NCBI GenBank assembly: GCA_031261445.1
Contig: JAISJQ010000025.1
Coordinates: 14,635 to 78,634, forward strand
DNA from: Oscillospiraceae bacterium
GTDB taxonomy: Bacteria; Bacillota; Clostridia; Oscillospirales; Acutalibacteraceae
Length of the DNA: 64,000 nt
Direction of reading: 5' to 3'
Part shown: positions 779-63,434 of the stretch, piece by piece
How the letters are laid out: the number at the start of each line of letters is the position of its first letter
Position numbering within the stretch: position 1 is the stretch's first letter
Program-made: the position numbers and the translations under genes
Notes under the pieces: generated by a model
Databases searched by the model: none
The model's input: the letters and a program-made list of their open reading frames with translations, nothing else
Told to the model about the DNA's origin: nothing

Positions 779-842
779 TGAGGAGTGAGGGTTGAGGACG
801 GAGGCGTGAGGTTTGTAGGGGCTTTTCTGTGCTCGCCCCTAC
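779..842. repeat. TGAGGNN heptad array (x5) plus palindrome GTAGGGGC-N12-GCCCCTAC
   Basis: Read directly. The 7-nt phase runs tgaggag/tgagggt/tgaggac/ggaggcg/tgaggtt into GTAGGGG. Confidence 0.85.
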
Positions 843-1758: not shown

Positions 1759-1979
1759 CAATGAACAATGAACAAAGAACAATGAACAATTGTTTGCCTG
1801 CTGCTTCAGCCAGTATTAAGATAACAACCTGTTTTGAGGCGTGAGGGATGAGGATACAGGCGTGAGGTCTGTATCCCCGCAACGGGCGGATGATATCCGC
1901 CCCTACCAGCCTCATTTCTGTATCCTCATCCCTCCACAACAATTGTTCATTGTTCATTGTCAATTGTTCATTGTCAATG
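1759..1979. repeat. about 220-bp nested inverted repeat: AATGAAC array / GAGG array / REP-like hairpin / CCTC array / GTTCATT array
   Basis: Arrays at 1760-1794, 1836-1870, 1884-1906, 1907-1935 and 1937-1979. The arms are reverse complements family by family. Confidence 0.9.
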
Positions 1980-6744: not shown

Positions 6745-6801
6745 CAATGAACAATTGACAATTGACAATGAACAATTGGTGGGGCGGCAGATTGCCGCCC
6801 C
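6745..6801. repeat. AATGAAC heptad array plus REP-like hairpin GGGGCGGCA-gat-TGCCGCCCC
   Basis: Read directly. Lies after the infB stop. Confidence 0.85.
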
Positions 6802-7426: not shown

Positions 7427-7430
7427 AAAA

Positions 7431-7460
7431 CTATTCACTATTCACTATTCGTTATTCACT
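7431..7460. repeat. CTATTCA heptad array (reverse complement of the AGTGAAT family)
   Basis: ctattca/ctattca/ctattcg/ttattca. Confidence 0.85.
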
Positions 7461-10280: not shown

Positions 10281-10424
10281 GTAGGGGCGCGCGCCCCTGC
10301 GCGCCCGCTGTCAGAAACATGAAGCCTGTAGGGGCGGCAATCTGCCGCCCGCTGAGTTTGTAGGAAGCAGCGGGCAGATTTTCGGGCGCAATTCTGCCCT
10401 CTGTCTTCTGATTTCTTCCCTCTG
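10281..10424. repeat. two REP-like hairpins, conserved linker, and a CTCTG-type heptad array
   Basis: GTAGGGGCGCGC..GCGCGCCCGC (10281-10308), GTAGGGGCGGCAatcTGCCGCCCGC (10328-10352), GCGCAATTCTGCCCTCTG.. (10385-10424). Confidence 0.85.
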
Positions 10425-20976: not shown

Positions 20977-21022
20977 GTTCGAACAATTGTTTTTCTGCTG
21001 GGAACGGCGCAGTTAACACAAC

Positions 21023-21071
21023 GGGCGACCGAGGACGGTCGCCCCTACGGGCAATTGTTCATTGTTCATTG
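21023..21071. repeat. REP-like hairpin (..CTAC) plus GTTCATT heptads overlapping the exporter gene stop
   Basis: GGGCGACCgaggacGGTCGCCCCTAC, then caattgttcattgttcattg. Confidence 0.85.
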
Positions 21072-23097: not shown

Positions 23098-23244
23098 GGA
23101 GGGATGAGGATTCAGGATACAGGCGTGAGGCCTGTAGGGGCGGCAACCTGCCGCTGTTAAGACGGCAGATGTCAGAGGACAGATCTTTAGGCGCAATTCT
23201 GTCCTCTTCAAGGTCAGCGGGCGCGCAGGGGCGCGCGCCCCTAC
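23098..23244. repeat. GAGG heptad array plus composite element bounded by inverted REP-like hairpins
   Basis: 23098-23133 heptads, GTAG hairpin 23134-23154, CAGAGGACAGA..TCTGTCCTCT 23167-23208, hairpin ending CCCCTAC 23217-23244. Confidence 0.85.
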
Positions 23245-27060: not shown

Positions 27061-27153
27061 CAATGAACAATTAACAAAGAACAATGAACAATTATTCGCA
27101 ACGGGCGGCAACTTGCCGCCCCACAACAATTGTTCATTGTTCATTGTTCATTA
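27061..27153. repeat. nested inverted repeat: AATGAAC array / hairpin GGGCGGCAactTGCCGCCCC / GTTCATT array
   Basis: 27061-27094, 27103-27122 and 27124-27153. Confidence 0.9.
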
Positions 27154-28665: not shown

Positions 28666-28717
28666 CTAGATGCTAAGCAAATAATTGTACATTGTAAATT
28701 GTTCATTGTTCATTGAA
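28666..28717. repeat. short CTAGATG unit plus GTTCATT-type heptad array abutting the mgtA stop
   Basis: ctagatgcta ... ttgtacattgtaaattgttcattgttcattgaa. Confidence 0.8.
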
Positions 28718-31462: not shown

Positions 31463-31588
31463 GTAGGGGCGCACGCTGATTATCACAAACGCAAGCGGGC
31501 GGCAGATTGCCGCCTCTACAGGCCTCATGCCTGTATCCTCAATCCTCATGCCTCTATAGCAGCGGGCGCACGGGGCGTGTGCCCCTAC
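31463..31588. repeat. half GTAG hairpin, REP-like hairpin plus CCTCA heptads (60-nt unit), second hairpin ending CCCCTAC
   Basis: 31463-31476, 31495-31554 and 31562-31588. Confidence 0.85.
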
Positions 31589-31647: not shown

Positions 31648-33348
31648 TTAGGTGACCGTCACCTTGCAGGTCGCCTTTTTGCCGTTATAGAGCTTGACGG
31701 TGATGATGGCCGTGCCCTTTTTCTTGGCGGTGACAACGCCTTTCGCGCTCACGGTGGCCACCTTTTCGTTATTGCTCTCCCAAGTGACCGCGCTGGCGGT
31801 GTTCGCTGGCAGGGTACTCTTTAAGGTCAGCGTTTTCTTCACGGCCAGTTTCGCCGTGGTCTTGCTGATGGTCACTTTGCTGGGGGCGGCTTTCACCGTC
31901 ACGGTGAACGTGGCGGGCTTTTTGTTGTATGTCGTCACCGTGATGGTGGTTTTGCCCACGCCTTTGGCGGTGATGCGCCCCGCAGAATCCACGGTGGCGA
32001 TTTTGGAATTCGCGCTTTTGTACGTGCGCGTGGTTTGCGCGGCGGCGGGTGTGAGCGTGACGGCGGTGGCGTATTTCTCCCCCACGCCCAGCGTGACGGA
32101 TTTCACCTTATAGGCAATCTTTGTGGGCGCGGCCTTGACGGTGACGGTGAATTTCGCGCTCAGCTCGTTATAGGTCGTGACGGTGATGGTGGCCTTGCCC
32201 ACGCCTTTGGCGGTGATTCTGCCCGCAGAATCCACGGTCGCGATTTTTTCGTTGTCGCTTTTATACGTGCGCTTGTCCTTCGCCGCCGCAGGGGTGAGGG
32301 TCACGGCAGAGCTGTATTTCTCCCCCACGCCCAGCGTGATAGACGCTGGCTTGAAAGCGATTTTTGTGGGCACGGCTTTCACCGTCACGGTGAGATTGGC
32401 GACCAATTTGTTGTAGCTTTGCACTTTGATGGTCACCGTGCCCACGCCCACGGCGGTGACAACGCCGTCCGCGTCCACGGTGGCGATCTTCTTGTTGGCG
32501 CTCGTATATGTGCGCTTGTCCCGGGCGTTCGTGGGCGTAATCGTCACGGCTGAGCGATACTTTTCGCCCACACCCAGCGTCACGGCAGTGCTCTTATAGG
32601 CAAGCGCGGTCGGCGCAGGCAGGACGGTGACGGTCAGCTCGTCGGTTAAGCTGTTATAGCTTTGCACTTTGATGGTGGTCGTGCCCACGCCAACGGCGGT
32701 GACAACGCCGCTGGCATCCACGGTGGCGACTTTTTTGTTTAAGCTGGTATACGTGCGGCTGTCCTTGGCCGCCTTCGGCGCGAGCGTGACGACGGTGGTA
32801 GCTTCTTCGCCCACGCCCAGCGTGAGGGGCGCGGTTTTGTAGGCCAGATCCGTCAAGGCCTCCAGCACCGTGACGGTCTGCGTGGCGGTCTTGTTGTTGT
32901 AGCTGGTGACGGTGATGGTGGCGGTGCCCGCGGCCACGGCGGTCACTTTGCCGCTGGCGTCCACGGTGGCGATGCTCTCATCGGAAGAGATGTACGTGCG
33001 CACCGCCTTGGCATCCGCAGGCGTTAGGGTGAGCGCGGGGGTGTTGATTTCGCCCACGCCCAGCGTGCTCTCGGCGGCTTTGAAGGCGATATCCTTGAGC
33101 GCAGGCTTCACGGTGATGACCAGCTTCGCGCTCTGATTGTTATAGGTGGTGGTGACGGTGATGGTGGCCGTGCCGGCGGCCTTCGCGCTGATTTTCCCGG
33201 CCGCGTCCACGGTCGCCACGGCCGTGTTGGAGGACGCATAACTGCGCCCACTGGCCGCACCGCCCGGCGTGATGACCGTGCTTGTCGCCAACGTTTGCCC
33301 CACGGCCAGCAGGGTCTCGCTTGCGCTGAGGGTGATGCCCGTGGGCTT
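31648..33348 (-). repeat. in-frame tandem repeats of ~240 nt encoding 7 Big_2 domains
   Basis: Adjacent units are highly similar at protein level (e.g. ..KIATVDSAGRITAKGVGKATITVTTYN.. twice). Confidence 0.8.
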
Positions 33349-34404
33349 GGGCGTGACGGCAATGGGGATGCTCGCCGTGGCGGTCGCGCCATTCAGGGCG
33401 TAACTGACGGTGACGGCAGTGTCCGTGGTCTTGAGCGCGGCGGTGGGGACGGTGTACGCCGTGACGGCGGCGGATTTGCCGTTGTTATAAGTCGCGGTGA
33501 CGACCAGTCCCGTTTTGTCGAACTTCTCGTCTTCAACGTACTGCACTTTGGCGGGCTTGGCGGTGATGGACAAGGCCGTGGGCTTTTTGCCGGACACCGT
33601 GATGGCCTGCGTGGTGGTTTTGGTCACAGACGCGTGGGTGTAGCTGATGGTCACGCTCTTGGTGGCGGTCGTCAAGGCCGCCGTGGGAACGGTGTAGGCC
33701 GTGACCGCGCCAGACGTGCCGTTGTCATAGGTCGCGGTGACAACCATGCCGCTTTTGTTGAAGACTTCGTCTTCTATGTAGCCCGTCTTGCTGGGCGGGG
33801 CAGTGACGGCGATTTGGGTCAGTGCCTTGGCACGCACACTGATGGGCGTGGTGGTGGTGACGGTCTGGCCGTTTTCGGTGTAGCTGATGGTCGCGCTGGT
33901 GCTCCCGGTGGTGAGCTTTGCGCTGGGGACGGCGAAATTGGTGACGGCGGCAGACGTGCCATTGTCATAATCCACGCGGACGGTCAAGCCCGCCTTGTCG
34001 AAGAGCTGCTCTTCAATGTACGCCGTCTTGTTGGGCGCGTGGGTGACGGTGATTTTGGTGGGCGTTTTGGCGCGAATGGTGATGGGCACTTCCGCTTGGA
34101 TCGTCCGCACCGCCGAGAGCTGCCAGATGACGTAGATTTTCTCGCCGGCTTTGGTGATATCGTCAGAAATGGCGTAATTCTGCACCGTTTCGGGCTCGCC
34201 TTCGGCGTATTGCAGCTGGACAACCATGCCCTTGGGCTCAAAGCGGTCGCCCTCAAGATAGTCATTTTTGGTGGGCGGGGTGAGGACGACGATGGCCGTG
34301 GGCTGATCCGCCGCCAATGCGGAAAAAGTGCCGACAAACGCGCCCATGAGCACGCAGACAGCCGCGACCAGCGCGAGCATTTTTCTGGGAAATGTGTGTT
34401 TCAT
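31648..34404 (-). CDS. cell-surface protein with 4 Big_3-like and 7 Big_2 Ig-like repeats
   Basis: Start MKHTFPRKMLALVAAV (signal peptide). Repeated YxEGxxFDxxGLxVxxxYxNG units, then repeated ATVDxxGxVTAxxxGTATITV units. Confidence 0.85.
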   Translation of the reverse strand: MKHTFPRKMLALVAAVCVLMGAFVGTFSALAADQPTAIVVLTPPTKNDYLEGDRFEPKGMVVQLQYAEGEPETVQNYAISDDITKAGEKIYVIWQLSAVRTIQAEVPITIRAKTPTKITVTHAPNKTAYIEEQLFDKAGLTVRVDYDNGTSAAVTNFAVPSAKLTTGSTSATISYTENGQTVTTTTPISVRAKALTQIAVTAPPSKTGYIEDEVFNKSGMVVTATYDNGTSGAVTAYTVPTAALTTATKSVTISYTHASVTKTTTQAITVSGKKPTALSITAKPAKVQYVEDEKFDKTGLVVTATYNNGKSAAVTAYTVPTAALKTTDTAVTVSYALNGATATASIPIAVTPKPTGITLSASETLLAVGQTLATSTVITPGGAASGRSYASSNTAVATVDAAGKISAKAAGTATITVTTTYNNQSAKLVITVKPALKDIAFKAAESTLGVGEINTPALTLTPADAKAVRTYISSDESIATVDASGKVTAVAAGTATITVTSYNNKTATQTVTVLEALTDLAYKTAPLTLGVGEEATTVVTLAPKAAKDSRTYTSLNKKVATVDASGVVTAVGVGTTTIKVQSYNSLTDELTVTVLPAPTALAYKSTAVTLGVGEKYRSAVTITPTNARDKRTYTSANKKIATVDADGVVTAVGVGTVTIKVQSYNKLVANLTVTVKAVPTKIAFKPASITLGVGEKYSSAVTLTPAAAKDKRTYKSDNEKIATVDSAGRITAKGVGKATITVTTYNELSAKFTVTVKAAPTKIAYKVKSVTLGVGEKYATAVTLTPAAAQTTRTYKSANSKIATVDSAGRITAKGVGKTTITVTTYNKKPATFTVTVKAAPSKVTISKTTAKLAVKKTLTLKSTLPANTASAVTWESNNEKVATVSAKGVVTAKKKGTAIITVKLYNGKKATCKVTVT

Positions 34405-34539
34405 CAAAATACCTCCTAAGTTGGAGCGCAAGAAGCCCCACTATACAGCTAATAGTATAGCGTAAGCGGTCGAAAAAGTCAAACGGCTGAGAGGAGAGAG
34501 GCGTGACGAATCAGCCCACAAGAATGCATTTCTAGAAAC

Positions 34540-36112: not shown

Positions 36113-36125
36113 GGGGTGCTCCTTA

Positions 36126-36162
36126 CTAGAAATTAGATATTAGAGACTAGATGCTAGATTTT
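36126..36162. repeat. CTAGATN heptad array (5 units in perfect 7-nt phase) in the response-regulator 5' UTR
   Basis: TAG at 36127, 36134, 36141, 36148 and 36155. Confidence 0.9.
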
Positions 36163-37614: not shown

Positions 37615-37694
37615 GTAGGGGACGCCGCCCTCGGCGTCCCGCTGATCTCTATGGTTTTTCTGCGCCACGGGGCGATGTGGACATCGCCCCCTAC
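37615..37694. repeat. pair of REP-like hairpins in opposite orientation
   Basis: GTAGGGGACGCCgccctcGGCGTCCCGC (37615-37642) and GGGGCGATGTggACATCGCCCCCTAC (37669-37694). Confidence 0.85.
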
Positions 37695-37720
37695 GGAAGG
37701 ATTTCTAAAACGGAATCGTA

Positions 37721-38119
37721 TCACATCTCGCCCAGCAGCGCCAGCGCGTCCTGAATCTGGAACGCGCATTCTTTGTATGCCTCTAGGTTGTGGCCGTAGG
37801 GGTCGTCAATGCCGTTCCCCAGAAGCACCACGCGCTTGTGGGGGTATGCGCCTTGCAGCACTTGCTGATGATATGCGCCGATGGCCACAATCAGGTCGGC
37901 GGTCTGGGCGATGTCCGGGGTCAAAAAACGGGAGCGGTGGTCGCTGATGTCAACGCCAAAAGTCTGTAGCGCGGCGACGGCGTGCGCAGAAGCCGACAGG
38001 CCGTCGGTGGCCAAAATGCCCGCGCTCGCGCACGATATTTCTGGATGCAACACGCCAAAAAGCCCCGCCGCCATGGGACTGCGGCAGGTGTTGCCGGTGC
38101 AGACAAACAGTACGTTCAT
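37721..38119 (-). CDS. low-molecular-weight protein-tyrosine/arginine phosphatase
   Basis: Start MNVLFVCTGNTCRSPMA at 38119, carrying the CX5R(S) P-loop. Confidence 0.85.
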   Translation of the reverse strand: MNVLFVCTGNTCRSPMAAGLFGVLHPEISCASAGILATDGLSASAHAVAALQTFGVDISDHRSRFLTPDIAQTADLIVAIGAYHQQVLQGAYPHKRVVLLGNGIDDPYGHNLEAYKECAFQIQDALALLGEM

Positions 38120-38163
38120 AGCTGAGTAAAGAACAGACGCTTTACGCTCGTCACACTTTTTGG

Positions 38164-38209
38164 TCAAAACAAAGCCGCCCTATGCCAGCGGGTAGCCGGT
38201 ACGGGCGGC
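38164..38209 (-). terminator. possible terminator after the 49-aa ORF
   Basis: GCCGCCC..GGGCGGC stem with a long loop, followed on the minus strand by TTTGTTTTG. Confidence 0.4.
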
Positions 38210-38220
38210 AATATGTTCGC

Positions 38221-38370
38221 TTACGCCGTGGCGAAGATGTCGGAAATCCCTTTGAGCAGAGACCCCCAAAGCTCGTTTAGGGCGATGGCGTCCCACGGTT
38301 TGCCCTCAGAACCGAAGCCCTGGAACCAGACGTTGAACGCGTTGAACAGATCTTGAATCAGTTTGTCCAT
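38221..38370 (-). CDS. small acidic hypothetical protein (49 aa)
   Basis: MDKLIQDLFNAFNVWFQGFGSEGKPWDAIALNELWGSLLKGISDIFATA. AAAGGAGG RBS, its own promoter motif (38446-38487), and a downstream hairpin. Confidence 0.5.
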   Translation of the reverse strand: MDKLIQDLFNAFNVWFQGFGSEGKPWDAIALNELWGSLLKGISDIFATA

Positions 38371-38445
38371 GTGTGTAGCCTCCTTTCCATGCTGGTAGGG
38401 GGCTTTGCCCCCGGAAGCGCTTGTGTCAAGAAGCGTTGCAGTAGT

Positions 38446-38487
38446 ATTGTAACACACTGTTCACAAGTTTTGTTTCCAAATTAGAAA
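38446..38487 (-). promoter_or_regulatory. 42-nt shared promoter-proximal motif, copy upstream of the 49-aa ORF
   Basis: Minus strand reads TTTCTAATTTGGAAACAAAACTTGTGAACAGTGTGTTACAAT. Confidence 0.6.
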
Positions 38488-38539
38488 ATCACACAAGATT
38501 TTTTTGCACCATATACTAATGTAGAGGAGTGATGACGAT

Positions 38540-40375
38540 ATGTGTGGAATTGCTGGCGTGATTAGTTTCGACCGAACGCCCGATGTGGGGGTGCTGCTGG
38601 GGATGCGCAACGCCTTAGTCCACCGCGGGCCGGATCAGCAGGGGCTGTATTTAGGCGAGCATGTGGGGCTGGCGCACACGCGGCTGAGTGTGGTGGATCT
38701 GGCGCACGGGCAGCAGCCCATGCGCTTGCGGCGGGGCGAGGCCGAATACTGGCTGGTCTACAACGGCGAGCTGTATAACACGGATGAATTGCGCCACGAG
38801 CTGCAGGCGGCGGGTTATCGCTTTGCGGGGCACAGCGACACCGAGGTGCTGCTGGCCGCGTGGGCACACTGGCAGGAGGGTTGCCTAGCGCGACTCAACG
38901 GCATTTTTGCGTTTGCCGTGTGGGAAAAACACCGCGAACGCTTGATTCTGGCGCGGGATCGCATGGGTGTAAAGCCTTTAGCCTTTACAGTCCAAGACGG
39001 CGCATTGATCTTTGCGTCTGAGTTAAAAGCGATCCTGACCGTGCCCGGCGTGGCGGCAAAACTCGATTCGGCGGGTGTGGCAGAGCTGGCGTTGCTCAGC
39101 CCCGGACGCACGCCGGGGCGGCTATTATTGAAAGATATGCAGGAACTCAAGCCCGGTCAGTGGGCGATTTTTTCGCGCGACACTGGCTTACAAACGCACA
39201 CCTATTGGAAACTCAAGGCGGCGAAACACACGGACAGCGCCGACGAAAGCGTCGAGCATGTGCGCTATTTGGTCAAGGACGCCATTGAACGGCAGCTGGT
39301 CAGCGATGTGCCCGTGGGGACGCTACTCTCTGGCGGGCTGGATTCGTCGGTGATTTCCAGCGTGGCGGACATCTATTTTACCGCGCGTGGGCAACGGCTC
39401 AAGACCTTTTCGGTGACCTATAAAGACCAGAAAAAGCACTTCCGCGCCGGAAAATTCCAGCCGAACGCGGACGACGAATATATTGCGCGGATGAACCGCT
39501 ACCTGAGCGCGGAGCACTTTGACGTGGTGCTCGACACCCAAGAGCTGGCCTGCGCCCTGCGCACCGCGCTGGAGGCGCGGGATCTGCCGGGCATGGCGGA
39601 CGTGGACAGCTCGCTACTCCTGTTTTGCCGCGAGATTCGCAATGAAGTGACCGTGGCGCTCAGCGGTGAGTGCGCGGATGAACTTTTTGGGGGGTATCCG
39701 TGGTATCGCGACGAGACGATTCGCGCACGGGCGGGGCTACCGTGGGCGCAGAGCACGGACTATCGCTACGGCTTTCTGCGCCCGGAGTGGCGTGCGCAAA
39801 TCGACCCTGCGGCGGTGGTACGCGCACAATACGAGGCGGTGCGTGCGGACACAGATGTGCAGGACGATGCGCCGGAAAGTCACAAGAATCTGCAACGCAT
39901 GGTGCGCCAGAACACGGACTTGTTCATGCAGACGCTGCTCACGCGCAAGGATGCCATGAGCATGGCCAGTGCGCTGGAAGTGCGCGTGCCGTTTTGTGAC
40001 TATCGCCTGGCCGAGTACCTCTACAACGTGCCGTGGGAGATCAAGGAACTGGGCGGGCAGGAGAAGGGTTTGCTCCGCACGGCGATGGCGGACTTCCTGC
40101 CCCACGAGGTATTGCACCGCAAGAAAAGCCCCTATCCCAAGACCCACAACCCCGCCTATTTACAGGTGGTGCGCGACATGCTGCGCGAAATATTGGACGA
40201 CCCCAACGCGCCTCTCTTTGCCCTGTTTGACCCGGCCGCGCTGGCGGGGCTACTGACCGAAGACGGCCGCTCCCTGCCGTGGTACGGGCAACTGATGACC
40301 ACGCCCCAAACCATCGCGTGGTTCGTGCAGGTCAATCACTGGCTCAAAAAATTTCATGTAGATGTTAGAAACTAG
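38540..40375 (+). CDS. asnB: asparagine synthase (glutamine-hydrolysing)
   Basis: MCGIAG nucleophile Cys2 and SGGLDSS PP-loop. 611 aa. Confidence 0.92.
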   Translation: MCGIAGVISFDRTPDVGVLLGMRNALVHRGPDQQGLYLGEHVGLAHTRLSVVDLAHGQQPMRLRRGEAEYWLVYNGELYNTDELRHELQAAGYRFAGHSDTEVLLAAWAHWQEGCLARLNGIFAFAVWEKHRERLILARDRMGVKPLAFTVQDGALIFASELKAILTVPGVAAKLDSAGVAELALLSPGRTPGRLLLKDMQELKPGQWAIFSRDTGLQTHTYWKLKAAKHTDSADESVEHVRYLVKDAIERQLVSDVPVGTLLSGGLDSSVISSVADIYFTARGQRLKTFSVTYKDQKKHFRAGKFQPNADDEYIARMNRYLSAEHFDVVLDTQELACALRTALEARDLPGMADVDSSLLLFCREIRNEVTVALSGECADELFGGYPWYRDETIRARAGLPWAQSTDYRYGFLRPEWRAQIDPAAVVRAQYEAVRADTDVQDDAPESHKNLQRMVRQNTDLFMQTLLTRKDAMSMASALEVRVPFCDYRLAEYLYNVPWEIKELGGQEKGLLRTAMADFLPHEVLHRKKSPYPKTHNPAYLQVVRDMLREILDDPNAPLFALFDPAALAGLLTEDGRSLPWYGQLMTTPQTIAWFVQVNHWLKKFHVDVRN

Positions 40376-40540
40376 GAACTAGGTGTTACGTGTGAGGTAG
40401 ACGCTGATGCCTCTACCTGTAGGGGCGAGCTATGCTCGCCCGCTGTGAAGACGCCAGCTTTTCGGGTGCGCAATTCTGTCCTCTGCCTTCTGATTCCTGT
40501 CTTCTGCTAGCTCAGCGGGCGAGCGCAGAAACGCCCCTAC
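40358..40540. repeat. TAGA-type heptads (contain the asnB stop) plus composite element bounded by inverted REP-like hairpins
   Basis: 40358-40388 heptads, GTAG hairpin 40419-40443, linker plus CTCTG heptads 40439-40507, degenerate hairpin ending CCCCTAC 40515-40540. Confidence 0.85.
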
Positions 40541-40561
40541 ACAAAATTGATTTCCCTGCAA

Positions 40562-42535
40562 TTAGCCACCCAAGGCATTGATTTCGTCCCGCAACTTGGC
40601 GGCGTGTTCAAATTCTAGGAGTTTCGCCGCCGCACGCATTTCTTGCGTGAGCTGCTCGATGAGCGCCGCGCGTTCCGCTGGGGAGAGGGTCTGCTGCGTC
40701 TTGCGGCCACGTTTGGTCTTGCCCGTGGGCTTGTCCGTCTGCGAGATATACAGCAGGTCGCGCACGTCCTTGACGATGGTTTTGGGGACGATGCCGTGCG
40801 CTTCGTTGTACGCCATCTGCTTTTCGCGGCGGCGGGCGGTCTCGCGCAGGGCACGTTCCATGCTGGGGGTAACCTGGTCGGCGTAGAGAATCACCATGCC
40901 CCCCGCGTTGCGTGCCGCGCGTCCCATGGTCTGGATGAGGCTGGTCTCCGAGCGCAAAAAGCCCTCTTTGTCCGCGTCGAGAATCACCACAAGGCTCACT
41001 TCTGGGATGTCCAACCCCTCGCGCAGGAGGTTGATGCCCACCAGCACGTCAAACTCCCCGTTGCGCAGGTCGCGGATGATCTCCATGCGCTCAATGGTCT
41101 CCACCCCAAAGTGCAAATAGCGCACTTTGATGCCCACGTCTTCCAGATAATCCGTCAGGTCTTCCGCCATCTTTTTCGTCAGCGTGGTGACCAACACCCG
41201 CTCGCCGCGCTCGATGCGCAGGTTGATTTCGCCGATCATGTCGTCGATCTGCCCCTCTGTGGGGCGCACGGACGTTTCGGGGTCGAGCAGCCCCGTGGGA
41301 CGAATGACCTGTTCGGCGACGACGGCGGATGTTTCGCGCTCAAACGCGCCGGGCGTGGCGGAGACGAACACCTTTTGCGGGCAGCGTGCGTAGAATTCCT
41401 CGTATTGTAGCGGGCGGTTGTCGTAGGCCGACGGGAGGCGAAAGCCGTAGGAAATCAGGTTCTCTTTGCGGGCGCGGTCGCCGGCATACATGGCGCGGAC
41501 TTGCGGCAGCGTGGCGTGCGATTCGTCCACAAACAGGAGGAAATCTTTGGGGAAATAATCCAGCAGCGTGAAGGGCGCAGAGCCGGGCGCACGTCCGCTC
41601 ATGACGCGGCTGTAGTTCTCGATGCCCTTGCAAAAGCCCGTTTCACGCAGCATTTCAATGTCGTAGAGCGTGCGCTCGCGGATGCGCTGCGCCTCAATGA
41701 GTTTGCCCGCCGCCGTGAATTCGGCCTCGCGGTCAATGCTCTCCGCGCCGATTTCGATGAGCGCCTTCTCCAGCTTTTCGCTCTCCACCACGTAGTGGCT
41801 GGCGGGATAAATCGCCACGTGGCTGACGACGTTCAGCACCTTGCCCGTCAGCGCGTTGATCTCGCTGATGCGCTCCACTTCGTCGCCAAAAAACTCCACG
41901 CGAATCGCCGTTTCGCTGGAATACACGGGGAAGACCTCCACCACGTCGCCCCGCACGCGGAAGGTGTTGCGCACAAAGCTGATGTCGTTGCGGTCGTACT
42001 GAATCTCCACCAGCTTGGCGATGAGGGCGTCGCGGTTTTTCGTCTGCCCCTGCCGCAGGCTGATGACCATGGAACGGTAGTCAATGGGGTCGCCCAGCGA
42101 ATAGATGCAGCTGACCGATGCCACCAAAATCACATCCCGCCGCTCGCTGAGTGCCGCCGTGGCCGAGTGGCGCAGCTTCTCAATCTCGTCGTTGATGGCC
42201 GAATCTTTCTCGATGTAGGTGTCGGTCGTGGGCAGGTACGCCTCCGGCTGGTAGTAGTCGTAATAGCTGACGAAATACTCGACGGCGTTGTGCGGAAAAT
42301 ATTCACGAAACTCACTGCACAGTTGGGCGGCAAGGGTCTTGTTGTGCGCCAAAATCAGCGTCGGGCGGTTCAGGTCCGCGATGATGCTGGCCATGGTGAA
42401 GGTCTTGCCCGACCCCGTCACGCCCAACAGCGTCTGCTCCGCGTGCCCCGCGTTGAGAGAGGCCTCCAGCGCGGCGATGGCCTCGGGCTGGTCGCCCGTG
42501 GGCACGTAGGGTGCAACCAATTCAAAATGATCCAC
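40562..42535 (-). CDS. uvrB: excinuclease ABC subunit B
   Basis: [12 protein letters not shown] motif, helicase motifs, and C-terminal UVR domain ([13 protein letters not shown]). Confidence 0.97.
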
Positions 42536-42569: not shown

Positions 42570-42800
42570 GTAGGGGCGGATATCATCCGCCCGCCGTTTG
42601 ATTTGTAGGGGCATTGAGGTATGAGGCGTGAGGGTTCAGGAATGAGGGTTGTAGGGGCGCACGCCCCGTGCGCCCGCTGTGAAGACGACAGATTTTCGGG
42701 TGCGCAATTCTGCCCTCTGCGTGAATCAGTGGGCGCACAGGGGCGTGCGCCCCTACGGGGATACCTGCCCGCCACACGGGCGGCGGATTGCCACCCCTAC
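42570..42800. repeat. dense cluster: GTAG hairpin, GAGG heptads, composite element with inverted hairpins, degenerate hairpin
   Basis: 42570-42594, 42613-42650, 42651-42756 and 42776-42800. Confidence 0.85.
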
Positions 42801-47580: not shown

Positions 47581-47785
47581 TAATAGTGAATAGGTTTTGG
47601 GATGAGGTTCGTAGGGGCGGATATCATCCGCCCGCCGTACAGAGGGCAGAGCGTTTCGCGCCTTGTATCCTCACGCCTCTGTAGGGGCAACCCTTGTGGT
47701 TGCCCTGCGGGTATGGTTGCCCCGATAATGTATTTTCCGTAAAGGGCGACCATACCCGCAGGGCACAGGCAAGGGTTGCCCCTAC
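47581..47785. repeat. AGTGAAT heptads, GTAG hairpin, and a 105-bp element with 28-bp inverted termini enclosing an 11-bp-stem hairpin
   Basis: 47581-47596, 47611-47635 and 47681-47785. Confidence 0.85.
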
Positions 47786-47804
47786 ATCCCCTGCGTTTCG
47801 GCAG

Positions 47805-47846
47805 GTGAACCAAAACACAACAGGGCACAGCTTGCGCTGTGCCCTA
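47805..47846 (-). terminator. intrinsic terminator after the GxGYxYP gene
   Basis: Stem AGGGCACAGC/GCTGTGCCCT (47822-47846), followed on the minus strand by GTTGTGTTTTGG. Confidence 0.65.
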
Positions 47847-47859
47847 CCCCCACCATCCA

Positions 47860-50007: not shown

Positions 50008-50068
50008 CTAGATGCTAGATTTTAGATGTTAGGTGCTAGATATCGAAGCTCTAGTGTCTAACATCTAA
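50008..50068. repeat. CTAGATN heptad array plus short inverted copy containing the aminotransferase stop
   Basis: tctagat/gctagat/tttagat/gttaggt/gctagat ... tctaacatctaa. Confidence 0.85.
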
Positions 50069-51348: not shown

Positions 51349-51422
51349 CAGAGGAGAGAAGGCAGATGTTTGGATCTGCGAGTCTGTCTTCTGTCTTCTG
51401 CCCTCTGACTTCTGAATTCTGA
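51349..51422. repeat. inverted CAGARRN / NYYTCTG heptad arrays
   Basis: cagaggagagaaggcagatg ... tctgcga/gtctgtc/ttctgtc/ttctgcc/ctctgac/ttctgaa/ttctga. Confidence 0.85.
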
Positions 51423-55899: not shown

Positions 55900-55956
55900 G
55901 CAATGAACAATTTACAATGAACAAAGAACAATTGTCCATTGTTCTTTGTTCATTGC
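55900..55956. repeat. near-perfect palindrome made of AATGAAC heptads and their complement
   Basis: gcaatgaacaatttacaatgaacaaagaacaattg t ccattgttctttgttcattgc. Confidence 0.9.
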
Positions 55957-56122: not shown

Positions 56123-57760
56123 ATGCCTACCCTCGCCGAAGTGCTCTTCCCGCAGTCCCTGCCCAACCCCGCCGCGCTGGAGGCGCAGTATCCGCCCCGC
56201 AGCCTGCCCGAGGGCGCACGCGTCACGCGCTTTGCCCCCAGTCCCACGGGCTTTTTGCATTTGGGCAGCCTCTACACGGCCTACGTCAATTTTCTCACGG
56301 CGCACAGCACGGGCGGCGTGTTTTTCCTGCGCATTGAGGACACGGACAAAAAGCGTGAGGTGGCCGGCGGCGTGGCATCGCTGTTGGAGAGCCTAGCGGC
56401 GTTTGGCATTGTGCCCGACGAGGGCGGCGTGGCGGGCGGCGCTTATGCCCCCTATACCCAGAGTGCGCGGCGGGAAATTTATCAAGCCTTTGCCAAGGAT
56501 TTAGTCGAGCGCGGCTTGGCGTACCCCTGCTTTTGCACGGAGGACGAACTGACCGCCTTGCGGGATGCCCAAGAGACAGCCGATGTGCCCCAGAAGGGCT
56601 ACTGGGGGCAGTGGGCGCGTTGCCGGGATTTATCTGCACAGGACGCCATCGCCCGTGTACAGGCGGGCGATGCGTGGGTATTGCGCTTGCGTGCGGATGG
56701 CGACGCCGAAAAGCGCATCGTCTTCACGGACGAAGTGCGCGGCAAGATTGAGATGCCTGAGAACATTCTGGACACTGTCTTACTCAAGCGCGACGGCGTG
56801 CCGACCTATCACTTTGCCCACGCGGTGGACGACCACCTCATGCGCACCACCCACGTCATCCGTTCCGAGGAATGGCTCGCCTCCGTGCCGCTCCATCTGG
56901 CGCTCATGCGCGTCTGCGGCTTCCGTGCACCCAAATACGCCCACATTTCCGCGCTCATGAAGAGTGAGGACGGCGCGAAGCGCAAGCTGAGCAAACGCAA
57001 AGACCCTGAAGCGGCGGTCAGCTGGTTCAGTGCGCAGGGCTACCCCGCCGATGCGGTGCTGGAATACCTCATGACCCTCATCAGCTCCGCCTTTGAAGAC
57101 TGGCGGCGCGTCCACCCCACTGAGCCGCGCTCTGCGTTCCCCTTCACGCTCAAAAAAATGAGTGCCTCTGGCGCACTGTTCGATGCCGTTAAACTGGCCG
57201 ACGTGAGCAAGGGTGTCATCGCGCTCGTCAGCGGTGCGGATTTGGCACAGCAGGTGCGGCACTGGGCGGGGGCGCACGACACCGCTTTGGCTGCGCTATT
57301 GGACAAGCACCCCGATCGTCTTGCGCAAATTCTGGCGATCGATCGCGACGGCGCAAAGAAGCCACGCAAAGACATCGCCCGTTACGGCGAAGTGCTCGGC
57401 TATGTGTCCTACTTTTTTGACGAACTGTTCGTCCCCGCGCTGCCGCTGCCTGAGGGCATCAGCCCCGCCGATGCATCGGAGATTTTGGGTGCATACGACT
57501 ACGATGCCGACGAAGACAAGGACGCGTGGTTTGCGCGTATCCGCGCGTTGGCGCTCTCGTTGGGCTACGCCGCCAGCCCCAAGGAATACAAAGACAACCC
57601 CGCCCAGTGGCGCGGTCACGTGGGCGCGGTCTCTTCTGTGATTCGCGCCGCCATCACGGGGCGCAGTAACACGCCGGATCTATGGGCGATTTGCCGCGTC
57701 TTGGGCGCAACTACGGTGCTCTCGCGCCTCCAGAAGGCGCTGGTGTCGCTGAACACTTAG
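56123..57760 (+). CDS. gltX: glutamate--tRNA ligase
   Basis: RFAPSPTGFLHLG (HIGH-type) and KLSKRK (KMSKS-type) motifs. 545 aa. Confidence 0.85.
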   Translation: MPTLAEVLFPQSLPNPAALEAQYPPRSLPEGARVTRFAPSPTGFLHLGSLYTAYVNFLTAHSTGGVFFLRIEDTDKKREVAGGVASLLESLAAFGIVPDEGGVAGGAYAPYTQSARREIYQAFAKDLVERGLAYPCFCTEDELTALRDAQETADVPQKGYWGQWARCRDLSAQDAIARVQAGDAWVLRLRADGDAEKRIVFTDEVRGKIEMPENILDTVLLKRDGVPTYHFAHAVDDHLMRTTHVIRSEEWLASVPLHLALMRVCGFRAPKYAHISALMKSEDGAKRKLSKRKDPEAAVSWFSAQGYPADAVLEYLMTLISSAFEDWRRVHPTEPRSAFPFTLKKMSASGALFDAVKLADVSKGVIALVSGADLAQQVRHWAGAHDTALAALLDKHPDRLAQILAIDRDGAKKPRKDIARYGEVLGYVSYFFDELFVPALPLPEGISPADASEILGAYDYDADEDKDAWFARIRALALSLGYAASPKEYKDNPAQWRGHVGAVSSVIRAAITGRSNTPDLWAICRVLGATTVLSRLQKALVSLNT

Positions 57761-60384
57761 TCCGCACAGCTACGGGCACTTTGCGCCGCATCAAACAGCG
57801 TTTGCATCGCTTCAAAGGGCGTTAGGGTGTTCACGTCCAGCCGCGCCAGTTGCCGCAGCAGGGCGCTCTGTGCCTCACGCGCGAAGGATATCTGGGTGTC
57901 GTCCGTGGGTAGGGGCACGTCATGACGTGCCCCTACGTTGGCGTCGCGTTCCAGCTGCGCCAGCACCACCCGCGCCCGCTTGACCACGCTCTCGGGCACG
58001 CCGGCCAGCTTTGCCGCCTCAATGCCGTAAGAGTCGTCCGCACCGCCGGGGACAATCTTGCGCAGAAAGGTCAGCTCGTCGCCGCGTTTTTTCACGGCAA
58101 TGTTGTAGTTCTTGACACCCGCAATGCTGTCCTCTAAATCTGTCAGCTCGTGATAGTGCGTGGCGAAGAGGGTCTTTGCGCCCAGTTTTTTCTTGTCCGC
58201 GCAGTGTTCAAGGACGGCCCTAGCGATGGACATGCCGTCGTAAGTGGACGTGCCGCGCCCGATTTCGTCTAGGATAAGTAAGCTACCCGGTGTCGCCGCA
58301 GAAAGAATCGCAGCCACCTCGCTCATCTCCACCAAAAAGGTGGATTGCCCCGCACTCAAATCGTCGCTCGCACCAATGCGGGTGTAAATGCCGTCGAGCA
58401 CCGTGAGCCGCGCACTGCTGGCCGGAACAAAACTGCCCGCCTGCGCTAAAAGACAAATGAGCGCGACTTGGCGCATGTAGGTGCTCTTGCCGGCCATGTT
58501 GGGACCGGTGAGTATCATGCAGCGGCACTCGTCCGTGTTGAGGTCCGTGTCGTTGGGGACGAAGGGAGCCGCGCCCTGCATCCGCTCCACAACGGGGTGT
58601 CGCCCGCCCACGATGTGTAGCACGCCGTCCGTGCACATGTCCGGGCGGACGTAGTTGGCCTGCGCCGCCGTCTGCGCAAGGGCGCATAGGGCGTCCAGCT
58701 CCGCCAGCGCACGCGCCGTTTTTTGTACGCGTGCCACCTGCGCCGCCGTCTTTGTCCGCACGCGCTCAAAGAGCTCAAACTCAATGCGCGTGATGCGCTC
58801 CTGTGCGCCGAGCACCTTGCTCTCGAGCTCTTTGAGCTCCTGCGTGATGTAGCGTTCCTTGTCCGTGAGGGTCTGCTTGCGGATGTAGTGCTCCGGCACG
58901 AGCGTTTTTTGGCTGTTGGGGACTTCCAGATAGTAGCCGTAGACACGATTGTAGCCGATCTTCAGCTTGCGGATGCCCGTCTTCTCCGCCTCTTTTTGGG
59001 CGATGCCCGCTAAGTAGCCCTTGCTGTCAGCAATCAGTGCGCGTAGCTCATCGAGCTCCTTGTGGAAGCCGTCGCGGATCATGCCGCCCTCGCGCGTGCT
59101 GGCGGGGGGCTCGTCGCTGATGGCACGCTCGACCAGTGCGCTCACGTCCTCTAAGGGGTCAAGGGACTCAAACAATTCCGCCAGCAGCGTGCTCTTGCAG
59201 ACGATGAGCGTGTCCAAAATCTTGGGCACAACCGCCGCCGTCACCGCCAGAGCACGCAGCGTCTGCGCGTTGGCCGAAGCGTACACAATGCGCGTGATGA
59301 GCCGCTCCATGTCCTGCATACTCGCCAGCAACAGTAGCAAGTCCTCCCGCACAGCCGCGGCGTTCACCAGCTCCTCCACCGCGCTGTGGCGGCGCGTGAT
59401 TGTGCCGATGTTCAGTAGCGGTTTTTCCAGCCAGCTGCGCAGTGTGCGCTTGCCCATGGCCGTGCGGCAACAGTCCATCACCCAGAGCAGCGAGCCACGC
59501 TTTTCCCGCGAGCGCAAGGTCTCTGTGAGCTCCAGATTGCGCAGTGTCGCGGCGTCTAGCCGCATGAAGGCCGACTCGCCATAGAACTCCAGCGTGCGCA
59601 TGTGCCCCAGCTCGCCCCGCTGTGTCTCCGCCAAATAGCGCAGACATGCCCCCGCCGCGCGGATGCTCTCCTGCGCCGCCAATAGGGGTTCGAGTGCCTC
59701 CTGGCCAAAGTGCCCTTCCAGTGCGCTTTGGGTGATGATGGGGTCAAAATAGCTCTCGGGCAACGCCTGTAGCATGGTCTGCAGGCGCGTGTTGGCAAAA
59801 CTGCGCAGTGCCGTGTCGGCGGCGGCCGCCTCGTTGAGCAGTAGCTCGGAGGGGTTGATGCGTGCCAGCTCCGCGCGAATGCTCTCGCCCAGATGTGCGC
59901 CCTGCAGCAGGCAGCAGGAAAACGCCCCCGTGGAGACATCCGCAAAGCAGAGCCCCGCGCGGTCGTCAAAGCGTGCGAGCACGGCCAAAAAGTTGTTGCG
60001 CCCATCGTCGAGCATCGAGCCCTCAATCACCGTGCCGGGCGTGAGGATGCGCGTCACCTCGCGCCTGACTAAGCCCTTGGCTTGCGCGGGGTCTTCCATC
60101 TGTTCACAGACGGCGACCTTGAAGCCCTGCTTGATGAGCCGCGCAAGGTAGGTCTCGATGGCGTGGTGGGGGACGCCGCACATGGCGGCGCGTTCGGGCA
60201 GGCCGCAGTCCCGCGCCGTGAGGGTCAGCCCCAGCGCACGAGAGACGGTCACCGCATCGTCAAAGAACATCTCATAAAAATCGCCCAGACGCCAGAACAA
60301 AACGGCGTCCGGGTTTTGCGCTTTGGCCTCCAAATACTGGCGCATCATAGGCGTGATGCTGGCGGGGATATTCTCGTAGATCAT
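57757..60384 (-). CDS. mutS: DNA mismatch repair protein MutS
   Basis: TPMMRQYLE N-terminus, TGPNMAGKSTYMRQ and LDEIGRGTSTYDG motifs. Confidence 0.97.
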   Translation of the reverse strand: MIYENIPASITPMMRQYLEAKAQNPDAVLFWRLGDFYEMFFDDAVTVSRALGLTLTARDCGLPERAAMCGVPHHAIETYLARLIKQGFKVAVCEQMEDPAQAKGLVRREVTRILTPGTVIEGSMLDDGRNNFLAVLARFDDRAGLCFADVSTGAFSCCLLQGAHLGESIRAELARINPSELLLNEAAAADTALRSFANTRLQTMLQALPESYFDPIITQSALEGHFGQEALEPLLAAQESIRAAGACLRYLAETQRGELGHMRTLEFYGESAFMRLDAATLRNLELTETLRSREKRGSLLWVMDCCRTAMGKRTLRSWLEKPLLNIGTITRRHSAVEELVNAAAVREDLLLLLASMQDMERLITRIVYASANAQTLRALAVTAAVVPKILDTLIVCKSTLLAELFESLDPLEDVSALVERAISDEPPASTREGGMIRDGFHKELDELRALIADSKGYLAGIAQKEAEKTGIRKLKIGYNRVYGYYLEVPNSQKTLVPEHYIRKQTLTDKERYITQELKELESKVLGAQERITRIEFELFERVRTKTAAQVARVQKTARALAELDALCALAQTAAQANYVRPDMCTDGVLHIVGGRHPVVERMQGAAPFVPNDTDLNTDECRCMILTGPNMAGKSTYMRQVALICLLAQAGSFVPASSARLTVLDGIYTRIGASDDLSAGQSTFLVEMSEVAAILSAATPGSLLILDEIGRGTSTYDGMSIARAVLEHCADKKKLGAKTLFATHYHELTDLEDSIAGVKNYNIAVKKRGDELTFLRKIVPGGADDSYGIEAAKLAGVPESVVKRARVVLAQLERDANVGARHDVPLPTDDTQISFAREAQSALLRQLARLDVNTLTPFEAMQTLFDAAQSARSCAD

Positions 60385-60585
60385 TGCTAGATCCTAATTT
60401 AGGTAATAAGTAATAGTGAATAGTGAATAGGTCATTTCAATGAACAATTTACAATGAAAAATTGTTGCAGGAATCAGCGGGCGGCAGGTTGCCGCCCCTA
60501 CAGGCCTCATGCCTGTATCCTGAATCCTCATTCCTCAATAGCCCATACAAACAATTGTTCATTGTTCATTGTTCATTGTTAATTG
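60385..60585. repeat. five-module spacer: TAGA, AGTGAAT, AATGAAC arrays / REP-like hairpin / CCTCA and GTTCATT arrays
   Basis: 60385-60400, 60401-60433, 60436-60468, 60477-60501, 60502-60539 and 60548-60585. Confidence 0.9.
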
Positions 60586-63338: not shown

Positions 63339-63434
63339 GTAGGGGCGGATAGCATCCGCCCGTGGTCTAGCAGAGGACAGAAATCAGAAGACAGAGGGCA
63401 GATTTGCGCCTTCTGCCCTCTGACATCTGATCTC
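63339..63434. repeat. GTAG hairpin plus inverted CAGARRN / CTCTG heptad arrays reaching the htrA stop
   Basis: GTAGGGGCGGATagcATCCGCCCG (63339-63362), cagagga/cagaaat/cagaaga/cagaggg/caga (63371-63402), ttctgccctctgacatctgatctc (63411-63434). Confidence 0.85.

Follow-up and report, generated by a model that had tools for sequence, protein, structure and literature searches.

The window analysed here is a stretch of 64,000 nucleotides from an Oscillospiraceae bacterium (contig JAISJQ010000025.1, positions 14,635 to 78,634), in which short GC-rich hairpins headed by the tetranucleotide GTAG recur. It is ordinary chromosome of about 59% GC and carries nusA, infB, argG, a P-type ATPase gene, asnB, uvrB (40562-42535, minus strand), mutS (57757-60384, minus strand) and obg; a tRNA scan of the window found none. 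Positions 42570-42800 contain four of the hairpins and a single solitary GTAGGGGC head. The first hairpin (42570..42593, plus strand), between the uvrB start and the next gene, reads GTAG-GGGCGGAT-atc-ATCCGCCC-G and has a predicted single-stranded DNA (ssDNA) fold of -9.5 kcal/mol. The solitary GTAGGGGC head follows, with an array of five TGAGGNN heptamers that runs into the next hairpin (42605..42650, plus strand). This hairpin opens an inverted doublet (42651..42756) made up of GTAG-GGGCGCACG-ccc-CGTGCGCCC, a conserved spacer and an inverted GCAC copy ending in CTAC, and the degenerate copy GTAGGGGTGGCAATCCGCCGCCCG (42777..42800, minus strand) closes the region.

A preliminary description of the window had likened these hairpins to proteobacterial repetitive extragenic palindromic (REP) elements of the GTAG type. 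The GTAG-REP reading is supported by our analysis. The host, however, is no proteobacterium: the organism is an uncultured gut member of the Oscillospiraceae, a Firmicute group, and its Obg is 76-78% identical to proteins of metagenome-assembled genomes (MAGs) named 'Oscillospiraceae bacterium'.

The hairpins are strongly enriched. Both strands of the window together contain 27 GTAGGGGC sites, compared with 1.20 +/- 1.05 (maximum 4) in dinucleotide-preserving shuffles, and 39 GTAGGG sites. A search for perfect hairpins with stems of at least 8 bp returned 46 rows against 10.7 +/- 3.4 in shuffles, the majority belonging to the GTAG-hairpin family. Each unit is 23-30 nt long and consists of a 5' GTAG tag and a GC-rich hairpin of 8-9 bp whose base is a GGGC/GCCC block. 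In about 20 window copies GTAG abuts the stem directly, and a few copies are untagged or degenerate (for example at 6781 and 27103).

All the stem classes listed in the preliminary description were present at the positions it gave. GGAT/ATCC stems lie at 1884, 42570, 47611 and 63339; GGCA/TGCC stems at 6781, 10328, 27103, 31495 (imperfect) and 60477; GCGC stems at 10281 and 23217; and GCAC stems at 42651, 42731 and 31562, the last with one mismatch. Single examples are GAGC at 40419, GACC at 21023, AACC at 47681, GGGACGCC at 37615 and GGGGCGATG at 37669. The reported identity over 28 nt between 42570-42597 and 47611-47638, the latter containing a plus-strand REP copy (47611..47634), was also found.

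By an approximate gene map, the sole copy within an open reading frame (ORF) supported by a known domain is at 57909-57936, in mutS; the remaining window copies are extragenic and occur in convergent, tandem and divergent spacers alike. A greedy ORF map placed further hairpins inside ORFs. Pfam checks and the called genes of a metagenomic contig overlapping the window (L119, from Logan) showed these ORFs to be unsupported or to have over-extended starts, and the candidates were rejected. The uvrB gene has REP clusters on both flanks.

Pairing of the inner stem was then assessed by alignment. Sites were collected from the window and all loci fetched from other genomes by their constant GTAGGG head and CCC tail at fixed spacing, with no requirement for inner pairing. 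In the layout with a 3-nt loop, 83% of the cells for the five inner pairs were Watson-Crick, whereas sliding the partner gave 18-28%; the perfect stems comprised 25 distinct 8-mers. Among 104 distinct 24-mers, 90.9% of cells were paired compared with 72.0% in shuffles, and 155 cells were changed on both sides compared with 37. The covariation score was 0.472 against 0.124 in shuffles, with 0/500 reaching the observed value and slid controls at or below 0.171; since the copies derive from amplified variants, individual cells do not represent independent events. Even so, the 3' arm is specified by the 5' arm, and the inner stem is free to change while it remains paired. The earlier observation that inner stems differ between copies yet stay complementary was confirmed by this covariation test.

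Stems that covary like structural RNA are also what would be expected if the hairpins were host-functional transcript elements, acting as 3'-end stabilisers of mRNA or as Rho-independent-like terminators and kept by selection on RNA structure with no transposase involved. Many copies do lie directly downstream of stop codons or in the spacers of convergent genes (815-842, 10281-10400, 40419-40540 and 47611-47848), and one has a T-tract. This copy (47819..47848, minus strand) is a related hairpin, GTAGGGCACAGC...GCTGTGCCC, followed by a T-rich tail, and is the only terminator-like copy between 36 and 48.5 kb; no T-tract was found 3' of the other copies in that interval. The 3' flanks of the non-terminator copies read GCTG.., GCCG.. 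or GTTG... Because only one copy in this interval has a T-tract, the copies are not canonical terminators, and the earlier statement that most lack a U-tract held there. An Rfam scan of the window gave no match to the hairpins. Copies in divergent promoter regions (1883-1906 and 23134-23244) and inside mutS also argue against a transcript element, as do the single-stranded GTAG tag and the inverted-doublet geometry, which have no role in termination. The same holds for two results described below, the recurrence of one 24-mer in unrelated contexts of 31-66% GC and the copies inside transposase ORFs. We therefore consider this explanation improbable. A secondary transcript role is possible and compatible with the REP reading.

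REP units are found alone or as inverted doublets in which GTAG lies at the outer ends. The oppositely oriented pairs that the preliminary description compared to bacterial interspersed mosaic elements (BIMEs), at 23134-23244, 37615-37694, 40419-40540 and 42651-42756, were all real, and their arrangement is BIME-like. Three of them (40419-40540, 42651-42756 and 23134-23244) and the cluster at 10328-10400 share a spacer and 5' flank, and an exact 20-mer of this spacer is confined within the window to 40419-40540 and 42651-42756. As ssDNA, the 42651-42756 doublet is predicted to fold end to end into one long hairpin (-45.2 kcal/mol, z -9.0), as is 40419-40540 (-27.9 kcal/mol, z -3.1). The predicted fold of 23134-23244 reaches -31.1 kcal/mol (z -5.1). 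By contrast, 37615-37694 folds as two independent hairpins and not as one unit. The other three pairs resemble REPINs, inverted REP doublets that form a long hairpin. The 40419..40540 doublet has GAGC stems and lies between the convergent asnB and uvrB stops; 23134..23244 combines a truncated GGCA copy, the spacer and a GCGC copy that is identical over 30 nt to 10281-10310. The inverted pair at 37615..37694 joins two different variants (GGGACGCCG and GGGGCGATG) and is intergenic according to the called genes of L119. A further inverted pair at 47681..47785 has AACC-type stems and a degenerate right copy. We also considered whether 40419-40540 was a decayed gene for a REP-associated tyrosine transposase (RAYT). 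This was rejected: tblastn similarity was limited to hairpin-encoded peptides, and the spacer is that of the other doublets.

The 24-mer at 42570..42593 is common to many Clostridia genomes. In a collection of species-representative genomes, more than 117 stretches among the matches listed contained it exactly (GTAGGGGCGGATATCATCCGCCCG). Hosts among these matches belonged to the Oscillospiraceae, Ruminococcaceae, Acutalibacteraceae, Christensenellaceae and Lachnospiraceae, and included isolates of Flintibacter (F. faecis BX5), Pseudoflavonifractor (P. phocaeensis), Colidextribacter (sp. OB.20) and Acetivibrio (sp. MSJd-27). Local GC content ranged from 31% to 66%. The sequences flanking the 24-mer were unrelated between stretches, and therefore the conserved or mobile unit is the element of about 25 nt itself. 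An inverted partner with GTAG outermost lay within 120 nt downstream of 45/122 copies (37%), at a median of 51 nt, compared with 30/580 random segments (5%).

The exact 24-mer was also present in 13 viral contigs from IMG/VR (L208-L220), some of them dense in GTAGGGG (25 sites in 4.3 kb in L220 and 16 in 14 kb in L213). No RAYT homologue was found in these 13 contigs. They may represent junctions of prophage and host, host DNA that was misbinned, or a vehicle of horizontal spread. Separately, three Logan contigs from SRR14710919 (L119, L221 and L222), which come from another assembly made independently of the same sample, cover the window at about 37692-40984 and in the obg and nusA regions, in pieces of only 2.8-3.6 kb. 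L119, at least, starts at a REP (about 37692), which suggests that REP repeats fragment short-read assemblies of such genomes.

As the preliminary description had stated, no RAYT gene lies in the 64-kb window: tblastn with the RAYT of E. coli, RayT, and with clostridial RayT matched hairpin-encoded peptides only. Among the loci carrying the 24-mer in other genomes, the E. coli RayT query matched ORFs in three. In these, the hairpin lies inside the ORF, twice, inverted and in frame. The protein of one locus (L086) reads ...DTG[VGADIIRP]RPIQ...YVIMPNHVHILLTLGEQN[GRMISAPT]KGL..., with the hairpin-encoded peptides in brackets, and a second (L108) has another stem variant at the same two ORF positions. 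A Y1 HUH transposase flanked by the hairpins had been anticipated. Relatives do carry a RayT-like gene associated with hairpins, but these lie inside the ORF and do not flank it.

RayT-like genes of this kind form a large family. A word search gave 1505 matches, under names such as 'REP element-mobilizing transposase RayT' and with matches to PF01797, and a search of cluster representatives gave 20,783 at E<=1e-3 and 205 at E<=1e-30. Both hairpin-encoded segments are nearly universal among the 120 closest homologues, in which the segment pairs co-vary as reverse complements require (VGAACGRP/GRPQAAPT, VGAAFGRP/GRPKAAPT and GAQCAPA/GRTLCAPT). Some of the more diverse representatives have the element in another frame (RAINNRPY, RAIRESPLQ) or in the opposite orientation, and some lack it. 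Members without inserts have 149-153 aa and those with inserts 166-175 aa. In a rough signature census, both sites were occupied in 115/119 close and 71/143 diverse members. A protein-level test of 'reverse-complement compatibility' between 6-aa and 5-aa windows was positive in 50-65% of reversed or shuffled controls, and it is not used as evidence.

The pairing of the two sites was instead tested in DNA from 85 RayT loci. Perfect tagged hairpins were present at both sites in 39/78 ORFs from metagenome loci. Typically a gtag-HAIRPIN lies 100-121 nt before the HUH codons and a HAIRPIN-ctac 40-61 nt after their start. In 29 non-redundant loci, the spacing of the two sites was 149-309 nt (median 167), and the variable core of site 1 matched the reverse complement of site 2 with an identity of 0.925 within a locus compared with 0.424 between loci; 0/10,000 permutations reached the observed value. 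Where the two sites of one gene differ (L134, L136, L175, L191, L200, L201 and L206), each change is compensated in its own hairpin, and therefore the local hairpins are what is maintained. GTAG hairpins outside the gene shared the 8-nt stem of the resident internal pair in 21/48 cases, against 3.6 +/- 2.3 when permuted (0/2000 permutations reached this); in L123, for example, 4/8 external hairpins had the resident stem. In a small sample of four distinct VGADxIRP genes, all third-codon positions of the stems were invariant and the loop codon alone varied. The MPNHxH motif of the same four genes varied at every degenerate third position.

Internal copies were also seen in other arrangements. 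One ORF (L207) contains four tagged hairpins, two on either side of HUH, and another (L204) has both copies downstream of this motif. In three loci (L148, L149 and L185) the first copy lies close to the start codon or ahead of it, at about 260 nt upstream of HUH. The same caller found no internal hairpin in E. coli rayT.

At the protein level, H93 and H95 of the HUH motif and Y156 are invariant in the RayT-like family. The best PDB match by sequence was TnpA-REP (4ER8, 3.4e-12), compared with about 7e-3 for ISDra2 TnpA, and in the alignment with 4ER8 the site-2 segment falls at a gap in the E. coli protein. An AlphaFold model of one member (P0036) had a pLDDT of 84, with its weakest internal blocks at residues 41-60 and 101-110; these blocks contain VGADIIRP (49-56) and GRMISAPT (105-112). 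A Foldseek search with this model returned Y1 transposases only, with the best TM-score and rmsd to 4ER8. In the model, the hairpin-encoded segments form predicted surface loops, one following beta-1 and the other the HUH strand, and so bracket the HUH motif.

The immediate neighbours of the RayT-like gene in the closest subfamily are uvrB on one side and a YbaK/tRNA_edit gene on the other, and uvrA lies downstream. The order uvrB - RayT - YbaK/tRNA_edit - (TfoX_N / Cys-rich genes) - uvrA was found in L120 (8030-15365), L125 (8020-13839) and L123 (2934-9433). The gaps around the RayT gene are 0-13 nt (in L120 and L125, 6-13 nt to uvrB and 0-5 nt to ybaK), which suggests that it is co-transcribed with genes of nucleotide excision repair. 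Linkage to uvrB, uvrA or ybaK was found in about 14 loci, and more distant paralogues lie elsewhere. Downstream of uvrB, where relatives have a RAYT, the window has none; a REPIN-like doublet and asnB are found there. The presence of REPs in repair genes, mutS among them, and the linkage of the RayT gene to uvrB and uvrA hint at a functional tie to single-strand DNA repair intermediates.

These results also bear on two explanations in which no RAYT system is involved. The hairpins might be ends or remnants, in the manner of miniature inverted-repeat transposable elements (MITEs), of insertion sequences (ISs) of the IS200/IS605 type (TnpA/TnpB) mobilised by a classical multi-copy Y1 transposase. 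The associated protein does have the Y1 HUH fold of the IS608 and ISDra2 TnpAs, and both systems recognise hairpins in ssDNA. Its sequence is nevertheless far closer to TnpA-REP than to ISDra2 TnpA, the GTAG tag is a hallmark of REPs, and the closest subfamily occupies a single syntenic context (uvrB-RAYT-ybaK-uvrA), like a resident gene. The subterminal left-end and right-end hairpins of IS200/IS605 elements lie on the same strand and are not inverted, and no tnpB-like ORF was noticed beside the hairpins, although no systematic search was made. An IS origin is accordingly very unlikely.

Alternatively, the hairpins could be binding sites of a host DNA-binding protein (nucleoid-associated, gyrase-like or repair-associated), kept across Clostridia by a common mode of recognition, with their presence in the RayT gene incidental. 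An exact sequence is kept across families and copies associate with DNA-repair genes (the uvrB flanks, mutS and the uvrB-uvrA cluster), and REP/BIME sequences of E. coli bind gyrase and IHF (PMC2817692). Against this, the inner stem varies freely with its pairing kept, which fits a folded single strand and not a duplex motif. Furthermore, the internal RayT copies co-vary with each other and with local dispersed copies, which an unrelated factor would not cause. We regard this as the least credible of the alternatives, with hardly any likelihood.

The window elements are very probably REP/REPIN elements, that is, miniature non-autonomous mobile hairpins of the GTAG superfamily that would act as single-stranded DNA and be moved by a RayT-type Y1 HUH transposase. 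By analogy with E. coli TnpA-REP and IS200/IS605, the enzyme would bind the folded hairpin and its GTAG on ssDNA, for example at the replication fork, and would cut and rejoin DNA such that copies spread and homogenise. With two hairpins inside the RayT ORF, enzyme and substrate would be inherited as one unit, and we propose that an identical 24-mer persists across many Clostridia families because of this joint inheritance. Secondary effects on the host, such as stabilisation of transcript 3' ends, are possible and not required.

Several observations weigh against the REP/REPIN interpretation. At least nine stem variants occur side by side in the window, and for this either several RAYT paralogues or one RAYT blind to inner-stem sequence would be needed. 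The link to a RAYT comes from other genomes, related Clostridia in which it is strongly supported, the window having none. Just 44% of nearby dispersed copies match the variant of the resident gene. No REPs flank the RayT gene in L120 and L125, and the closest subfamily has no canonical REPtron layout. Finally, the mobility of the copies is putative.

The role of the internal pair is a separate question. It is possible, if somewhat doubtful, that the pair is a selected and so far undescribed functional part of the system, as opposed to a group of scars left by insertions that were tolerated. The catalytic motif would then form the 'spacer' of a gene-internal REPIN, with a GTAG-hairpin after beta-1 and its reverse complement after the HUH strand. 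Such a pair could act as inherited master copies through which transposase and REP stay linked and co-evolve, and/or it could be a self-recognition site for autoregulation or self-inactivation. Both the identity of the 24-mer across families and the domesticated location of the gene, between uvrB and uvrA, would be explained by a functional pair. Alternatively, the internal copies may be tolerated self-insertions homogenised with the dispersed pool. The varied frames, orientations and positions of the internal copies favour repeated insertion or replacement, whilst their near-universality and two-site matching favour selection or an active homogenising process.

The copy in mutS (57909..57936) is a perfect palindrome, GTAGGGGCACGT-catg-ACGTGCCCCTAC, tagged with GTAG at both ends and translated in frame as NVGARHDVPLPT; this peptide belongs to a variable linker that precedes the C-terminal region of MutS. 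The palindrome is missing from the Lawsonibacter homologue (L047). MutS thereby joins the DNA-repair genes that carry intragenic REPs. A GGCA copy lies upstream of mutS (60478..60501, minus strand).

The remaining copies are spread along the window. Just 3' of a VanW gene, a doubly tagged copy (GTAGGGGC...GCCCCTAC, 815..842) has a poorly paired interior. A GGAT copy (1883..1906, minus strand) is the centre of a nested palindrome of about 230 nt made of mirrored heptamer arrays. At 6781..6801, a GGCA copy in which GTAG is not intact (...CCCCTTAC) is preceded by an ACAATTG heptamer array. The cluster at 10281..10400 (plus strand), between convergent genes, consists of a GCGC copy (10281-10310), a GGCA copy (10328-10351) and a spacer hairpin (10372-10399). 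A GACC copy (21022..21048, minus strand) has GAACAATTG motifs at its flanks, and an untagged GGCA hairpin (27103..27121) sits between inverted CAATGAA and ATTGTTC heptamer arrays. The cluster at 31463..31588 is degenerate, with a broken left copy, a GGCA copy near 31495 and a GCAC copy with one mismatch (31561-31588, minus strand). Towards the end of the window, 63339..63422 (plus strand) contains a GGAT copy with an agc loop and a spacer-type hairpin (63392-63422).

Many intergenic spacers also hold tandem arrays of period 7, which account for about 25 of the 62 rows returned by Tandem Repeats Finder (TRF). Their units include CAATGAA/ATTGTTC, GAGGNNT, AAATCTA, ACTATTC, CTAGATG, TCTGACT and others. 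Heptamer arrays lie at 777-811, 1759-1790, 1942-1978, 2639-2675, 6751-6778, 7430-7460, 27061-27092, 27129-27152, 28684-28715, 36124-36158, 42613-42650, 50008-50041, 51383-51422, 55901-55955 and 60554-60585. Frequently they flank a REP as mirrored arms, examples being 27061-27152 and the nested palindrome, which spans 1735-1980. In other genomes, strong lag-7 arrays were found in 7/260 flanks of the 24-mer and in 0/130 random segments; no strong arrays with lags of 5, 6, 8 or 9 were found in the 24-mer flanks. We take the window arrays to resemble the short tandemly repeated repetitive (STRR) heptamer repeats of cyanobacteria.

Two motifs adjoining the REP hairpins are strongly over-represented. 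GAACAATTG has 13 sites in the window against 0.83 expected (for example at 1784, 1940, 1961, 6749, 6770, 20981, 21052, 21684, 27127 and 60552), and GGCGTGAGG has 10 exact sites (for example at 803, 1838, 1859, 21750, 23122, 42625 and 47669). Pairs of sites are often 21 nt apart, which is three heptamer periods. Together, the heptamer arrays and the GAACAATTG and GGCGTGAGG motifs around the copies give a BIME-like mosaic.

Two further features of the window are unrelated to the hairpins. The gene at 14354-17029 (minus strand) encodes an 891-aa protein that combines an AEP-TOTE primase domain (PF22548, 4.5e-98) at its N-terminus with a DEAD/ResIII helicase domain, a component of a TOTE conflict (defence) system. 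Within the ORF at 31648-34431 (minus strand), tandem repeats of 243 nt with 73-74% identity (31875-32972) correspond to seven Big_2 Ig-like domains of a 927-aa surface protein.

No better example is known of bacterial mobile DNA that is long-lived and passed on vertically than REP/REPIN elements and their RAYTs, and knowledge of them comes almost entirely from Proteobacteria. Our analysis extends the GTAG-REP system to abundant Clostridia of the gut and rumen, where they are common enough to break up metagenome assemblies and create spurious small ORFs. The substrate hairpins embedded in the RayT genes are a natural experiment, frozen at synonymous sites and co-varying, with frames and orientations that differ by lineage. 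They make it possible to test enzyme-substrate co-evolution, recognition of shape versus sequence, and the action of an enzyme on its own gene.

The closest known systems are the GTAG-REP superfamily (Di Nocera, De Gregorio & Rocco 2013, PMC3733652) and the REP/BIME elements of E. coli with TnpA-REP/RayT (4ER8; PMC3479197). As in the superfamily, a 5' GTAG abuts a GC-rich stem (5-13 bp there) with a short loop, copy number is high and copies are mostly extragenic, inverted dimers are frequent, in-frame copies occur occasionally in DNA-repair genes, and there is an association with a Y1 HUH transposase. Unlike those elements, which are species- or genus-specific, one exact 24-mer is found here across many families and a wide range of GC content. 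In contrast to the E. coli system, the hosts are Clostridia/Oscillospiraceae and the REPs lie inside the RayT ORF instead of flanking it. PMC3733652 makes no mention of Firmicutes or Clostridia, and PMC6006769 draws on a REP catalogue described as 'mostly Proteobacteria'. In the literature searched, REPs flank RAYT genes or at most overlap their ends.

The inverted doublet and its long hairpin are shared with the REPIN-RAYT systems of Pseudomonas fluorescens SBW25 and its relatives (Bertels & Rainey 2011, PMC3116915; Bertels et al. 2017, PMC5581495). The Pseudomonas RAYT is single-copy, resident-like and vertically inherited, with its own REP sequence class (PMC3116915; PMC5581495). The clostridial system differs in that the pair is intragenic, with a spacer (sites 149-309 nt apart, median 167) that encodes the HUH catalytic motif, that in the closest subfamily the RayT gene lies in a uvrB-uvrA cluster with scarcely any intergenic space, and that a single genome can have many stem variants. 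With the TnpAs of IS200/IS605 elements (IS608 and ISDra2) it shares the Y1 HUH fold and, by analogy, probably the recognition of an ssDNA hairpin with an adjacent tetranucleotide. In those multi-copy ISs the gene is part of a mobile element with the hairpins, on the same strand, at its boundaries, whereas the RayT-like genes are syntenic, have inverted hairpins within the ORF and are less similar to these TnpAs than to TnpA-REP.

In-frame hairpins tolerated in loops or linkers have precedents in the Rickettsia palindromic elements (RPEs) and in REPs within uvrA, uvrB, recBCD and polA (Di Nocera 2013, PMC3733652). Unlike the RPEs and such sporadic intragenic REPs, the RayT insertions are paired, inverted, placed in the same two loops across a large family, and co-varying with dispersed copies. 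Searches of the literature for REPs in Firmicutes or Clostridia, for uvrB linkage and for the peptide signatures found no REPs in these taxa or inside RAYT ORFs, the search by gut taxon being uninformative. Relative to the literature searched, the taxon, the cross-family identity of one variant and the intragenic, HUH-bracketing, co-varying REP pair are new.

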